IMG/VR virus record: IMGVR_UViG_649989947_000010
Location: 1-47,812 of that record
DNA length: 47,812 bases
Source of the DNA: a virus
Lineage: Duplodnaviria; Heunggongvirae; Uroviricota; Caudoviricetes
Reading direction: 5' to 3' (one strand)
The position numbers and the translations under genes were made by a program. The notes beneath the pieces are model-generated. The model was given only the letters and a program-made list of their open reading frames with translations. It was not told the DNA's origin and made no database searches. This document shows, piece after piece, positions 1 to 47,812 of the stretch; positions within the stretch are counted from its first letter, which is position 1; the number at the start of each line of letters is the position of its first letter.

Positions 1-1032
1 CAGACCAAATTCACGCTGTGCTTCATACGCCGCCTGTACCGTGTGCTCAGCCGCGATGACGAACTGGTTTGGGAACAGGGTGTAACTCTTCATTTCGTGG
101 TTGATAAGTGGGATCAGCTCAGGAGCTGCTTCTATATTGATCTCCGCCTCAATGGCGATCTCAGTGCCTTTATCCGGCGCTTTGGAGAACGACAGGGCAA
201 TCTGACCAACGTTGTAATTCAAAGAGCAAGTAACAGTGATTTGTTCGCCTGCTTTGTTATTGAATGTGTGAAGCAGAGTACCGGAGCCGTTATCAACAAC
301 AGACTTAATACGGTTAACGTAGATGTTTGTGCGACCTTTGCGAATCGGGACATTCTGACCTTCGACATCTTCCATCTTGAAGGTTGCAGTTTTGCTGGTG
401 CCGTCGGAGCTTGCAACCAGCACATAGCGGCGGCGCAACTGGCTGTACACGCCAACGGATTGCATGTCCAGAACATCACCAATAGCATAGGAGCCAAAAG
501 AAGAACCCGCTACGTTAAAGATTTCATAGATTTCGGACTTGTCACGCGTAACCGGAATGAATGTACACGCATCAGCGGTAGCTGCCCCCAACTGAACAGG
601 CAGGATCATCGCCAAGAATAAAGGCAGACGCATAACCCCGTCAGAAACACTCATCATCTCTGCCGCGACTGATTCCAGCATCGCTTTATTGGTGGCGTCC
701 ATGCTATTGCGGGTGGACTCAATCAGGCAGTTTTCCAGCGTCTGATGGCAGGAGGCCAGAATTTCCGGACGTGGCATAGATTTATGTGTTGCGGCGTAGT
801 CAGCCAGTGCACTTGCCCACGCTGTAGCGATTTGAGCGGTGGCATTATCAGAGATACCCGCAAAAATTGGGTCTTTACGTGCAGCTTCAAGGATAGATGC
901 GGCACGCGCGGCATCATCTTTAATGAATTGGTTATCAGTACCGAACTGCGCAGTGCTTGCCCAGCCAAGCACAGCTTTAGAGCGTTTTGCGATATCTGCA
1001 ATACGATTCTGGTATTCGCGTAAGTTACTCAA
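1..1032 (-). CDS. Phage structural protein, 3' end cut by window edge (possibly P1 gp23-like major head protein)
   Basis: Stop-free minus-strand frame from TTG at 1032-1030 (RBS AAGGAAGAG upstream) to position 1; plus-strand ORF 43..621 is its antisense shadow; lies just downstream of parS; product assigned by position only. Confidence 0.4.
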   Translation of the reverse strand, partial: MSNLREYQNRIADIAKRSKAVLGWASTAQFGTDNQFIKDDAARAASILEAARKDPIFAGISDNATAQIATAWASALADYAATHKSMPRPEILASCHQTLENCLIESTRNSMDATNKAMLESVAAEMMSVSDGVMRLPLFLAMILPVQLGAATADACTFIPVTRDKSEIYEIFNVAGSSFGSYAIGDVLDMQSVGVYSQLRRRYVLVASSDGTSKTATFKMEDVEGQNVPIRKGRTNIYVNRIKSVVDNGSGTLLHTFNNKAGEQITVTCSLNYNVGQIALSFSKAPDKGTEIAIEAEINIEAAPELIPLINHEMKSYTLFPNQFVIAAEHTVQAAYEAQREFGL

Positions 1033-1170
1033 TTTACTCTTCCTTAAACACAAGGCACTTGTGTGAATCCCTTTTCGGAAGAGATTTTATTGAAAGTCAC
1101 TTGTTGACTTTCTCGTGACAAGCAATTTTTTTATTTTTTTTCGGGAGTAGGGGAGGAAGGTAAAATCCAA

Positions 1171-1256
1171 GGTGAAATCGTGGCGATTTCACCTTGAAAT
1201 TTTAGAGTGATTTACTTTAAAAACAGTAGGTTAATAGTGAAATTTGAATGGCGAAA
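1171..1256. promoter_or_regulatory. parS: parS centromere-like partition site (heptamer box A GTGAAAT/ATTTCAC and hexamer box B TGGCGA flanking an AT-rich IHF-like core)
   Basis: GGTGAAATCGTGGCGATTTCACC ... AT-rich core ... GTGAAATTTGAATGGCGA directly downstream of parB stop; matches recalled P1 parS layout. Confidence 0.75.
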
Positions 1257-1258
1257 GT

Positions 1259-2260
1259 TTAAGGCTTCGGCTTTTTATCGAGGCTCTTTCTAAGGATATG
1301 CCCAATCATCCTGTCGAGTTCTTCCTGTAGCTCTTTTGAAAGTCGATTAAACTCATAAGAAAATGCACGGCCTTTCACGCGCTTCCTTGCAAAGCGATCC
1401 TTGTCCTCAAATTTCCATAATTCAGTAACTACGGACTTATCTTTAGAACCTTTATCCGTGAGTAGTGAGGCTTCCTTTGTTATCAAGCGCAGGATTTTAT
1501 TTTTAACTTCATCTTCGGCCATTTCTTCAATGGATAAGATGTCGTTTATTTCCGGGGATATGTTTTGAATAAGCTGATCAAACTCTAAATTCTTGTTCCC
1601 CATTTCGTCGCCAACAGCACAAAGCGTTTTGTAGTCCGAAAAGGTTAATTCCGACTGCACAGGGAAAAGGGCGACTAATTCTTCCGGAGCACTCGCTGCC
1701 TGGAGAGCACGCGTGACTTTCGCCTGAGACAGCCCTTCTTTGGCTGCAATATCCTTCTGACTCATCCCATCATTTTTCATTCGCATCAAACGCAGACCTA
1801 TTTCTCGAATGCTGTGCTGCAATGCTGTCTGAACGTCTTTCGCTAAATTTTGCGCTTCCTGAACGCTGATCTCCTGGTCCGTGACTAAAACCCGCAACCC
1901 TACGTTCTCTAAGATGGCAGAAGCTCGACGCCGGGAACCATCCAAAATTTCAATTTTCCCTGTAGCCCGTCTAACACCTATTGCAGGGTAAAATTGCTGA
2001 TGCTTAATAGTGCTTCGGATACTTTTTAATGATTTTGGCGTAAGAGATGCCTGGTCACGCCCGTTGTTATGCTGATCAACAAAGGTATCGCTTTCTACCT
2101 GGTTCGGAGGTATTACCTCTTCAATAAATGTGGCCTGGCGACCAGTTGATAACTTGAATACCTGCTCGACTCGATCGCCAGAGGCTGAAGAACTATCAAA
2201 TCCGCTTAATATTGAAGGATTAAGGGTTCGCCCAATTGTTGGTCTGTTTTTCTTTGACAT
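1259..2260 (-). CDS. parB: Partition protein ParB (centromere-binding)
   Basis: 333-aa ORF directly downstream of parA with 16-bp gap, followed by parS; sequence as recalled for P1 ParB. Confidence 0.85.
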   Translation of the reverse strand: MSKKNRPTIGRTLNPSILSGFDSSSASGDRVEQVFKLSTGRQATFIEEVIPPNQVESDTFVDQHNNGRDQASLTPKSLKSIRSTIKHQQFYPAIGVRRATGKIEILDGSRRRASAILENVGLRVLVTDQEISVQEAQNLAKDVQTALQHSIREIGLRLMRMKNDGMSQKDIAAKEGLSQAKVTRALQAASAPEELVALFPVQSELTFSDYKTLCAVGDEMGNKNLEFDQLIQNISPEINDILSIEEMAEDEVKNKILRLITKEASLLTDKGSKDKSVVTELWKFEDKDRFARKRVKGRAFSYEFNRLSKELQEELDRMIGHILRKSLDKKPKP

Positions 2261-2276
2261 GGGGGTTTCTTACTCC

Positions 2277-3473
2277 TCAGTTAGATCTGATAAATTCAAT
2301 ACGGTCAAAAACTGCTTTAGCAAAATCTTCCGCAGCAATTCGCGCGTTCTTCAATGCATCAGCACTACCAACATACGTTGCCGGGTTAGCTGAAATAACA
2401 GTGTCAAAAGACTCGCCGCAGCGTTCAAAACCGTCAAGGCGAGGGAGGACAACATCAAGCATATCCCCACCGAACACTTCTTTAGCCAGGCTATGGCAAT
2501 ACTTATGGTCTGCCTTGTTACTCAACTTGGACATAAAACCAATGTTAGTTGCAAGCTGACACTCGCAGCCTTCATCCGAAATGAGTTTCACCAACTCAGG
2601 AAGGCGGGCAACGTATTTAAGCGATGAGTGGAAATCAACCGTTGCAGGCGGCAGAGGTGTAAACAGTATATTGGCCGAGGCCAAAGCATTTTTCAGGAAG
2701 GCGTCAAGGTGAGGACCACTATCAACGAGGATAAAGTCATAATCGCTCTTCAGCTTATCAATCACATTTTCTTTCAGGACTGCATGGATGTTCTGACCCG
2801 GTAGATGCTCATTGCACAGCTCTCTCCAATCGGATGCAATAAAGGCATCGTCAATCGACGCAGGCATAACGTCAACCCCAGGTACAACAGAAGGAACAAT
2901 AAACTCCTCTAACAGCTCTTCACGGCTTACATTCTGCAACATAGCCTGTGCAGATGTTGCGTTTACGATACCAATAGAGTGTTTATGGCTTAAAAACATC
3001 GTTGCTGAAGATTGCGGATCAAGGTCAATAACCAGAATCCTTAAATCTTCCATCAGAAGATGAGGATGAGCACGCATTGCATGCGCCAGAGAAACCGTCG
3101 ATACAGTTTTTGACACACCGCCTTTAAGATTGGAGATGAAAATCACATACGCTTCGCTGTAGCGATCCCGGTATTTTGGCACTCCGCGATGTTCATATAT
3201 GTCAATGATGTTCTGAATTGACATCGCATATTTCATTGAAGAGCCAGCAGGGCGTTTATCGAAAACATAACCCTTTTCTTCCATTTCACTTACGGCATAG
3301 TCAACGTTCGCACGAGTCAGTAGAGGCAATTTTGCCAGTGCCGCTTTCGCATAGACCTGGTAAAACTCGTTCGCGTGTAGCTCATCCTTTTGCAACTGTA
3401 CTTGTTCAGTCAGAACATTGAGCATTCTATTTGCTCTTTGAGCAACCTTGTGAAGCTGGCTGGAATCACTCAT
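2277..3473 (-). CDS. parA: Partition ATPase ParA (type Ia, long N-terminal DNA-binding extension)
   Basis: 398 aa; deviant Walker A NLKGGVSKTVST; N-terminal ~100 aa extension typical of autoregulating type Ia ParA. Confidence 0.9.
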   Translation of the reverse strand: MSDSSQLHKVAQRANRMLNVLTEQVQLQKDELHANEFYQVYAKAALAKLPLLTRANVDYAVSEMEEKGYVFDKRPAGSSMKYAMSIQNIIDIYEHRGVPKYRDRYSEAYVIFISNLKGGVSKTVSTVSLAHAMRAHPHLLMEDLRILVIDLDPQSSATMFLSHKHSIGIVNATSAQAMLQNVSREELLEEFIVPSVVPGVDVMPASIDDAFIASDWRELCNEHLPGQNIHAVLKENVIDKLKSDYDFILVDSGPHLDAFLKNALASANILFTPLPPATVDFHSSLKYVARLPELVKLISDEGCECQLATNIGFMSKLSNKADHKYCHSLAKEVFGGDMLDVVLPRLDGFERCGESFDTVISANPATYVGSADALKNARIAAEDFAKAVFDRIEFIRSN

Positions 3474-47212: not shown

Positions 47213-47422
47213 TTATTGTGAGTCTGGCTGGTTAGTGGCCATGAGATATTCGATTGTGTCAGTGAGATCATCCAGGTCGTCTTGGGTGATGCGGTACTCC
47301 TGATTGGATATCTTTGAGTAGTGTTCAGCAATGGCGCGGGCAGCGTCGGTTTCGGCGGGGTCTACAGATAAAGCGTTAGAGCAATGTCTAACGTCGTCGA
47401 TGGTTGGTGGAATGAAAGCCAT
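47213..47422 (-). CDS. coi: Coi, C1 inactivator
   Basis: 69-aa acidic protein directly upstream of c1; as recalled for P1 Coi. Confidence 0.8.
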   Translation of the reverse strand: MAFIPPTIDDVRHCSNALSVDPAETDAARAIAEHYSKISNQEYRITQDDLDDLTDTIEYLMATNQPDSQ

Positions 47423-47660
47423 AATTATGCCTCACTGTATTGACAACACAGAGCCTGAAGCTCTGACCTACTGTTTCACCCATGATCCATGCTGGGGTAA
47501 TCTAACAACATTGCGCTGTGTGTAAGATGAGCAATGCATAGCTGTAATGCCGTTGTATAAGGTTTCCCTGTTTGCTCATTTCCTTCTGAGCCGCTCTACA
47601 ACGCTGAAGACACATTAAATAGTGAATCCAAAGTCGTATTACGAAACGGCGGCAAAACTA

Positions 47661-47677
47661 TAATTTATTAGAGCAAT
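47661..47677 (-). promoter_or_regulatory. C1 operator (plus strand TAATTTATTAGAGCAAT)
   Basis: 16/17 to reverse consensus, upstream of coi. Confidence 0.7.
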
Positions 47678-47753
47678 TGTCAAACAACTATGAAAAACAA
47701 TCCAGTTTTTGGCTGGTGGAGTGGGATTTTTCTCTCAAAATTTATTGCTCTAA

Positions 47754-47770
47754 TAATTCTTGATTTTTAT
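47754..47770 (+). promoter_or_regulatory. C1 operator-like site (ATTGCTCTAATAATTCT)
   Basis: 15/17; same variant as the 27979 site. Confidence 0.6.
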
Positions 47771-47803
47771 GCGCAGCTGGACGTAAACTCCTCTTCGGAC
47801 CTA

Positions 47804-47812
47804 ATAACTTCG
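47804..47812 (+). other. loxP: First 9 bp of a loxP-like site (ATAACTTCG), cut by window end
   Basis: Window ends CCTAATAACTTCG, matching the start of the loxP left arm ATAACTTCGTATA; position relative to c1-coi fits P1. Confidence 0.4.

Follow-up and report, generated by a model that had tools for sequence, protein, structure and literature searches.

P1-like phage-plasmids make up a very common family in Escherichia coli and Salmonella, whose resistance genes give it applied importance. A comparison of such elements described "repA' (p0111) and an unknown gene replacing repA (IncY)", found the p0111 type in 24 of 55 P1-like elements and typed the repA' of the element JL22 as p0111; the published variable regions 6, 7 and 8 of these phage-plasmids are the sites of the replication (rep) module, of the tciABC replacement and of the pmgT-to-hot stretch, with region 8 running from pmgT to humD (PMC9603915). 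Here we compare with these systems a 47,812-nucleotide (nt) stretch of a Caudoviricetes record (IMG/VR IMGVR_UViG_649989947_000010, positions 1 to 47,812), which we call the window. Its sequence identifies it, with near certainty, as about one half of a p0111-replicon member of the P1-like phage-plasmids (genus Punavirus). The window is an ordinary, well-preserved half of a P1-type phage, a kind that E. coli and related hosts maintain as a plasmid, and nothing in it calls for a new explanation.

Alignment of the window to P1 (NC_005856) by blastn returned eight colinear blocks, all on the plus strand and spanning P1 positions 57742-94792, which together account for 33,125 of 47,812 nt (69.3%) at block identities of 94.7-98.4% (Table 1). 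By tblastn, 47 of 55 P1 proteins have a match in the window, all in P1 order and none with internal stops. Forty-four of these match at 88% amino acid (aa) identity or above across all or nearly all of their length (gp23 only as far as the window edge), the exceptions being RepA, at 42% identity, and pmgN and pmgT, each found in two separated pieces. The genes recovered comprise parB, parA, upfA-C, uhr, hrdC, dmt, plp/upl, ban, dbn, baseplate genes 5, 6, 24, 7, 25 and 26, pmgL-S, ppp, pap, lxr, humD, phd, doc, pdcAB, lpa, pacA, pacB, c1, coi and imcAB; the eight proteins without a tblastn match in the window are those of tciA, tciB, tciC, pmgV, upfM, upfN, upfO and hot. Megablast of both window halves against a phage collection likewise placed Punavirus records at the top (P1, P7, RCS47, SJ46, JL22 and others). 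An earlier reading made from the letters without database searches (hereafter the original prediction) had called the window the parS-to-loxP half of a P1-type phage-plasmid and proposed a whole-window alignment with a list of segments lacking a P1 counterpart. That alignment is colinear and leaves seven such segments, and every landmark named in the prediction was found intact and in P1 order by blastn, tblastn and comparison of cis-acting sites, none of them mapping to an unrelated replicon. The description of the ends needs partial correction: the window does end 9 nt into loxP, and it opens inside gene 23, 1.17 kb before parS, with 344 codons of that gene preceding the predicted starting point. 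Similarly, repA, incA and the origin iterons are present and are not P1's own, RepA being only 42% identical to P1 RepA.

Only one of the seven segments, an IS10 composite in pmgN, is a true insertion, and to that extent alone does the predicted presence of "several non-backbone insertions" hold. The six others are allelic replacements or variants rather than insertions, because they coincide with the published variable regions or occur in other P1-like plasmids: the rep module, the tciABC replacement and the pmgT-to-hot region are each present elsewhere, and the four leftmost segments all lie inside a single alignment of 22,917 nt to plasmid NZ_CP020522, which covers window 1-22917 at 98.8% identity and 100% coverage. 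At least 80% of the first window half (the first 22.9 kb) is covered by each of 216 plasmids. Together, these comparisons indicate that the differences from reference P1 are the normal variable regions of the population, already known from this family, plus one private event, the IS10 composite.

The replicon sets the window apart from P1. Between a left breakpoint at 3575/3576, just beyond parA, and a right one at 5834/5835, blastn against NC_005856 found no nucleotide match to P1 (window 3576-5834). The wider stretch 3300-6100 is 98.1-98.6% identical at the nucleotide level to JL22, RCS47 and SJ46, which places the replicon in the p0111 type, and the module itself is 98-99% identical to RCS47, SJ46, JL22, MH422554 and others. 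Assignment to IncY fails on the missing nucleotide match, on the 42% identity of RepA and on an iteron core, TCGCGTATAGTCAAC, that is unlike P1's. Iterons with this core lie upstream of repA in oriR (period 21, 4.9 copies by Tandem Repeats Finder), and six incA-like iterons sit downstream of repA in both orientations. The right breakpoint, as given by the blastn block boundary, falls inside oriR, between the p0111 iterons and a P1-like half with five GATC sites (5850-5907) and a DnaA box, TGTGGATAA (5913-5921), and the origin is thus a hybrid, a point that may be useful to annotators of p0111-type elements. Judged by these matches, the replicon is of the p0111 type, not IncY, and the par system is of the P1 type. 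With a Rep3-family RepA, five origin and six incA-like iterons, ParAB-parS and phd-doc, the window holds a full set of plasmid-maintenance functions. By analogy with P1 biology, the element would replicate in lysogeny at low copy from oriR, through RepA and its iterons and with handcuffing via the incA-like array; it would be partitioned by ParAB-parS with P1 specificity, given that ParB is identical and parS nearly so, and phd-doc post-segregational killing would hold it in its host. We predict that it should be compatible with an IncY P1 in replication and not in partition.

Regulation and packaging follow P1 closely. The consensus of the 17-bp asymmetric C1 operators has 11 matches in the window against 0.19 expected by chance, and consensus operators stand at the positions of Odmt, Oban a/b, O26, OpmgRa/b, OpmgT, Olpa and Oc1; comparison with P1 adds Oppp (22774-22790, 16/17 identical) and Oc1c (47369-47385, 17/17), for a total of at least 13 C1 operators ahead of the same operons as in P1. 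The C1 (99.6% aa identity to P1 by tblastn), Coi (100%) and Lpa proteins are present together with the late promoters LP23, LPpac and LP26. PacA (97.0% aa) and PacB (44742-46226; 88.7%) accompany a pac site with four plus three Dam-methylatable TGATCR hexamers, at 43742-43781 (starts at 43742, 43749, 43761 and 43776) and 43872-43900 (starts at 43872, 43884 and 43895), and an integration host factor (IHF) site identical to P1's (43804-43816, 13/13) lies between the two groups. If the element behaves as P1 does, C1 would repress the dmt, ban, 26/pmgL, ppp, pmgR, pmgT, lpa and c1/coi operons in lysogeny, Lpa would switch on the late promoters upon induction, and PacAB would cleave the Dam-regulated pac site for headful packaging, to be followed by Cre-lox recircularisation. 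As read from its sequence, the element has every Punavirus feature testable in the window and fails as an IncY replicon. We also observed that PacB diverges from P1 more than its neighbours PacA and C1 do, and that 39862-47812 is the least P1-like block of the backbone (94.7% nucleotide identity), yet 97.9% identical to plasmid AP026755.

Table 1. Features of the window, in order of position, with the P1 blocks and the segments that lack a P1 counterpart (block identities at the nucleotide level; percentages for proteins are amino acid identity to P1).
Feature	Position	Strand	Details and basis
P1 block 1	1-3575	+	P1 57742-61315; 97.3% (blastn)
Gene 23 (major head protein), codons 1-344 of 568, cut by window edge	1-1032	-	95.6% to P1 gp23 (tblastn)
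Late promoter LP23	1084-1102	-	19/19 identical to P1
parS (ParB box A/B repeats, IHF site)	1172-1254	-	80/83 identical to P1; palindrome 1162-1202
parB	1259-2260	-	333/333 aa identical to P1 ParB (tblastn)
parA	2277-3473	-	99.7% to P1 ParA (tblastn)
Non-P1 segment: p0111-type replicon	3576-5834		2,259 nt; replaces P1 incA-repA-incC (IncY); blastn gap
T5orf172/GIY-YIG-like gene, in-frame amber	4451-3642 (3642-4451)	-	269 codons; translation
incA-equivalent iterons	4482-4744		4 in one orientation (4482-4624), 2 opposite (4704-4744); core TCGCGTATAGTCAAC; repeat search
repA, p0111 type, 294 aa	4744-5628	-	Pfam Rep3_N + Rep3_C (WH1/WH2); 42% to P1 RepA
oriR	5705-5929	-	five p0111-type iterons, 21-bp-spaced (5705-5812), plus P1-like part
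P1 block 2	5835-10146	+	P1 62816-67133; 97.7% (blastn)
upfA, mlp, ppfA, upfB, upfC	5963-8076	-	92-100% (tblastn)
uhr, hrdC, dmt behind C1 operator Odmt (8158-8174)	8246-11443	+	tblastn, operator match
Non-P1 segment: variant block in dmt	10147-10330		184 nt, 430 nt in P1
P1 block 3	10331-12365	+	P1 67564-69594; 96.6% (blastn)
Oban a/b (11434-11461) and structured tRNA/ban operon leader	11434-12118	+	operator matches; 96.6% to P1
tRNA-Asn (GTT), tRNA-Thr (TGT)	12119-12272	+	ARAGORN, Rfam; 76/76 and 75/76 identical to P1 trnA, trnT
plp (variant allele) and upl	12243-13008	-	173 nt extra at 12366-12538; blastn, tblastn
Non-P1 segment: plp allele	12366-12538		173 nt extra
P1 block 4	12539-13175	+	P1 69572-70207; 98.1% (blastn)
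Non-P1 segment: SPFH/Band-7 gene (13418-14245) and 78-codon ORF (13201-13437)	13176-14263	+	replaces tciA-tciB-tciC; Pfam Band_7 E=1e-30
P1 block 5	14264-22917	+	P1 70924-79578; 98.2% (blastn)
CAT-anticodon tRNA	14273-14348	+	76/76 identical to P1 trnI
ban (DnaB-like helicase), dbn	14634-16996	+	99.6%, 97.0%
Baseplate/tail operon, genes 5, 6, 24, 7, 25, 26	17043-21794	-	97-100%, stop-free (tblastn)
LP26/LPpmgL divergent late promoters	21824-21852		28/29 identical to P1
LP26/LPpmgL, operator O26, pmgL, pmgM	21824-22767	+	tblastn, operator and promoter matches
pmgN, split by IS10 composite	22834-25474	+	codons 1-29 at 22834-22920, codons 26-51 at 25397-25474
Non-P1 segment: IS10 composite in pmgN	22918-25395
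IS10 copy X, complete, 1,329 bp	22918-24246	+	402-aa transposase 23025-24233; both ends
IS10 RNA-OUT	22963-23032	-	Rfam, 98.8 bits
IS10 copy Y, IS10 nt 180-1329 (without nt 1-179)	24247-25396	+	abuts inside end of X at AGCTTAACG
P1 block 6	25396-31009	+	P1 79569-85182; 98.4% (blastn)
pmgO, pmgP, ppp, pmgQ, OpmgRa/b, pmgR, pmgS, pap	25419-30120	+	95-100%
Operator OpmgT (30120-30136) and 242-aa gene (30315-31043)	30120-31043	+	first 232 codons = N-terminal part of P1 pmgT
Non-P1 segment: accessory block between pmgT parts, absent from P1	31010-37889	+	6,880 nt (6.9 kb); small ORFs, Ead/Ea22-like, DUF551, PHROG families of unknown function
Two Ead/Ea22-like genes	32293-32985, 32982-33557	+
DUF551 protein, 423 aa	34911-36182	+
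312-aa gene	37333-38271	+	last 77 codons = C-terminal part of P1 pmgT
P1 block 7	37890-38236	+	P1 85182-85528; 94.8% (blastn)
Non-P1 segment: pmgV-upfMNO-hot replacement	38237-39861		1,625 nt; small ORFs; toprim/primase-like gene 38814-39365 (+)
Terminator-like hairpin	39378-39404		within pmgV-hot replacement
P7 Upf93.6-like gene	39488-39844	-
lxr (-), LexA box 40565-40584, humD (+)	39845-40993		box 20/20 identical; tblastn
P1 block 8	39862-47812	+	P1 86842-94792; 94.7% (blastn)
phd-doc addiction module	41066-41667	+	both 100% (tblastn)
pdcA, pdcB, operator Olpa, lpa (late promoter activator)	41651-43463	+	tblastn; Lpa 100%
LPpac	43495-43513		19/19 identical to P1
LPpac, pacA (holding pac site), pacB	43495-46226	+	tblastn
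immC	46251-47760	-	c1 46251-47102, coi 47213-47422, imcB/imcA 47391-47615, operators Oc1a-e
loxP start, ATAACTTCG	47804-47812	+	final 9 nt of window

The private event is an IS10 arrangement that the original prediction had flagged as a tandem and that proves real. Copy X is a complete IS10 with canonical ends (CTGATGAATCCCC...GGGGATCTCTCAG); copy Y, lacking nt 1-179, is not autonomous, and the two differ at four positions. A 9-bp target duplication, GACCCTGTA, at 22909-22917 and 25397-25405, flanks the whole 2,479 bp and neither copy singly. At the internal junction the inside end of X is joined to AGCTTAACG (IS10 nt 180-188). The IS10 target consensus is NGCTNAGCN, and we take AGCTTAACG, one position off it, to be a near-consensus IS10 target. 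A 100-nt probe of the X/Y junction gave one uninterrupted match among 5,426 E. coli genomes; in the chromosome of E. coli Br_112_kylling, the full nested structure (Y 1-188, then X, then Y 180-1329) lies in yebB, with AGCTTAACG duplicated on both sides of X. On the evidence of these junctions, the window composite is derived from an IS10 inserted in another IS10. Two routes to its present position fit equally well: the 2,479-bp unit, bounded by the outside end of X and the inside end of Y, would have transposed into pmgN, or Y would have entered pmgN first and received X, after which the 188-bp direct repeat would have recombined out. A search for IS10 at the pmgN site in phage, plasmid and E. 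coli collections found none, and an apparent case in plasmid CP027199 was rejected, as its IS10 lies in a different locus and had been joined to the match. An open reading frame (ORF) of 391 codons (24208-25383, plus strand) starts in the last 39 nt of X and continues in frame into Y's transposase frame; its product, if expressed, would be an N-terminally altered transposase. Several K-12 and B laboratory strains (JM109 at the srl locus, DH5alpha, ER2796/ER3413 and BL21-Gold) carry two IS10 in direct tandem, with copies that appear to be 9 bp apart, as estimated from the 288-nt span of two matched pieces, unlike those of the window.

Insertion sequence copies are a classic source of misassembly, and IS10 at this site is found in no other record, so that one might suspect the tandem, or even the whole mosaic, of being an assembly artefact from a collapsed or expanded repeat or a chimeric contig. 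Such an origin is highly improbable because of the single-nucleotide differences between X and Y and the independent occurrence of their junction, identical in a complete genome. The internal junction is moreover exact and at a near-consensus target, a clean 9-bp pmgN duplication flanks the composite, and all other P1-backbone junctions are shared with sequenced plasmids. Still harder to credit is an origin from laboratory P1 or P7, or from a P1-derived vector, instead of a natural relative. In its favour, five proteins (ParB, Phd, Doc, Lpa and Coi) match P1 at 100% and C1 reaches 99.6%; against it, the backbone has 95-98% nucleotide identity to P1, RepA and PacB fall to 42% and 88.7%, the 6.9-kb accessory block is missing from P1, and P7 covers only 67-70% of each window half. 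Some observations do weigh against the identification of the window as half of a p0111-type P1-like phage-plasmid, or limit its reach. The left junction of pmgN::IS10 has no exact match in viral, genome or metagenome contigs, and the second window half has no match above 79% coverage in the phage, plasmid or E. coli collections; the window is identical to no record searched, its best matches reaching 98.8% identity in the first half and 79% coverage in the second. Only half of the element is in view, and the identification covers that half and not completeness or viability as a phage. At its edges the window has 344 codons of gene 23 and, at 47804-47812, the opening 9 nt of loxP; beyond them would lie cre, the remainder of loxP, the lytic replicon repL, immI (c4/ant), the invertible tail-fibre (cin) segment, the sheath and lysis genes and the head genes that precede 23. 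The composite may also be polar on pmgO-Q and may have rendered the phage defective.

This last point leads to a reading that concerns activity rather than identity and that can hold together with the assignment to P1-like phage-plasmids, namely that the element is a plasmid-locked, defective derivative in which IS10 is polar on pmgO-pmgP-ppp-pmgQ and morphogenesis is blocked. We regard it as possible, with the balance tilting against it. The composite splits pmgN and lies between PpmgN/Oppp (22735-22790) and pmgO (25419), which are now 2.5 kb apart; pmgO-pmgP-ppp-pmgQ are thereby separated from their C1-controlled promoter, and a polar effect on them is plausible. The related p0111 element JL22 is inducible and without lytic capacity (PMC9603915). 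Nonetheless, the window's remaining P1 genes are intact, the P1 record gives the pmg genes no more than a putative role in morphogenesis, and read-through from the IS10 transposase frames, which share their orientation, is possible.

The amber-interrupted gene noted in the original prediction is also real, and is a point-mutated T5orf172/GIY-YIG gene inside the p0111 module. The lesion changes TGG to TAG at codon 68 (window 4248-4250, minus strand), a codon that reads TGG in RCS47, Ro157c2YLVW and SJ46, and it falls inside the T5orf172 domain, placed at aa 8-85 by a domain search with the RCS47 orthologue. The gene is intact in RCS47 and Ro157c2YLVW, and the window holds no intact T5orf172 ORF. 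Among 40 evenly spaced plasmids sampled from the 401 that carry the gene, about 36 have it annotated as one intact gene, and the other lesions seen lie at different sites (a nonsense codon near the 3' end in SJ46, a frameshift in 673R5 and a split gene in CP020522). These counts and positions weaken both the proposal that the amber is a conserved recoding signal and the proposal that the gene is recurrently pseudogenised. By this comparison, the amber is a sporadic nonsense mutation and not a recoding signal.

The anatomy of the two loci suggests further possibilities. The T5orf172/GIY-YIG gene always lies beside p0111 repA, and it may be a selfish homing-type nuclease behind the IncY-to-p0111 swap; if so, the amber allele of the window may be one of several independent decays. 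The layout of the 2,479-bp unit similarly suggests that it may move as a composite, by way of X's outside end and Y's inside end, and that it may have locked a P1-like phage in the plasmid state by silencing pmgO-Q. We consider these readings, a mobile composite that locked the phage as a plasmid and a homing nuclease that drove the replicon swap, unlikely.

To the right of the composite, P1 pmgT (309 aa) corresponds to two window genes. By tblastn its residues 1-232 match the start of the 242-aa gene and residues 232-308 the tail of the 312-aa gene, and these two window proteins are unrelated to each other. In P7, SJ46 and the P1-like plasmids that we fetched, the homologues of the two halves are separate, with 5-7 kb of accessory genes between them, and the difference is hence better read as a deletion in P1 than as an insertion in the window. 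Comparative anatomy thus makes P1 pmgT appear an in-frame deletion fusion of two unrelated genes. Deletion in P1 by homologous recombination between paralogues was considered and rejected, as the flanking proteins are unrelated and microhomology at the P1 junction amounts to about 1 nt. If the fusion reading is true, reference P1 represents the derived state at this locus, which annotators may find useful. The accessory array, on the plus strand, sits behind the C1 operator OpmgT (30120) and is a patchwork of pieces that match P7, SJ46, AP026755, CP027199, CP063155 (98.4% identical over window 37769-39419) and the ea region of lambdoid Stx phages; with eight comparison loci pooled, five patches of 124-255 nt are left unmatched.

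Between the replicon and the baseplate operon, the window carries several alleles that differ from those of P1. Its Dmt (dmt, 9425-11443) has 672 aa vs 754 in P1 and keeps both methylase domains; the variant block (10147-10330), its only non-P1 part, lies between two matched stretches of the C5-cytosine methylase domain. Target-recognition regions usually sit between such stretches, and this Dmt allele might have a cytosine-methylation specificity other than that of P1 Dmt. The 672-aa allele is common among P1-like plasmids, and the SPFH allele also occurs in plasmid CP020522. The CAT-anticodon tRNA is labelled Met by ARAGORN; the identical P1 gene is annotated tRNA-Ile2, in agreement with the tRNA-Ile call of the original prediction. 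Where the P1-like upl region ends, immediately before the SPFH replacement (13047-13167, plus strand), Rfam gives a sub-threshold match to STnc100, a gammaproteobacterial small RNA (37.8 bits, E=6e-6; the gathering score is 47). In the stretch of the tRNA/ban leader, a dicF-like region is noted in the P1 record.

A hairpin array, which the original prediction had also listed, is not borne out: searches of the window for short-range inverted repeats, for all perfect stems of at least 8 bp and by sliding-window folding found no discrete array. Two stretches come closest to one: the incA-like iterons in inverted orientation (4482-4744), among which 4534-4560 forms a perfect 12-bp hairpin, and, in the P1 backbone, the leader at 11444-12118 (675 untranslated nt from dmt/Oban to tRNA-Asn), which folds much better than shuffled sequences do (z -3.97) and matches no Rfam family at the gathering score. 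At such scores, Rfam finds only the three tRNAs and IS10 RNA-OUT in the window.

The result serves mainly as a baseline. Both the amber gene and the IS10 tandem are mutational events of an ordinary kind, and just three items are slightly out of the common run: the nested IS10 composite, the deletion fusion that P1 pmgT appears to be, and the hybrid oriR breakpoint. Between gene 23 and loxP, the window agrees with P1 (NC_005856/AF234172) in the genes present and in their order; 69% of its length aligns, at 95-98% nucleotide identity, and the shared parts include parABS, phd-doc, c1/coi/imc, lpa, pacAB with pac, ban, the tRNAs and the baseplate operon. It differs in carrying a p0111 repA with its iterons and the T5orf172 gene where P1 is IncY, the SPFH gene in place of tciABC, its own dmt and plp alleles, a 6.9-kb Ead/Ea22/DUF551 block at the site of P1's apparent pmgT fusion, a primase-like block instead of pmgV-hot, and pmgN::IS10. 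RCS47 (NC_042128), SJ46 (NC_031129) and JL22 (ON018986) share the rep module at 98-99%, and none of the p0111-type P1-like relatives, NZ_CP020522 included, has pmgN::IS10 or the window's combination of modules at 31-39.9 kb. P7 (AF503408) shares the backbone, and its homologues of pmgT-N and pmgT-C are likewise separated by accessory genes (upf86.8-upf90.8), Ead-like and Z3119-like ones among them; by contrast, it is IncY, covers 67-70% of each window half and has IS903 in its accessory region. The insertion itself agrees with IS10 of Tn10 (IS4 family; ISVsa5 in RefSeq annotation) in its 1,329 bp, canonical ends, 402-aa transposase, RNA-OUT and 9-bp duplication. Whereas Tn10 is bounded by an inverted IS10 pair and the K-12 laboratory strains have two IS10 separated by 9 bp, the window carries a full copy followed directly, in the same orientation, by a 5'-truncated one.

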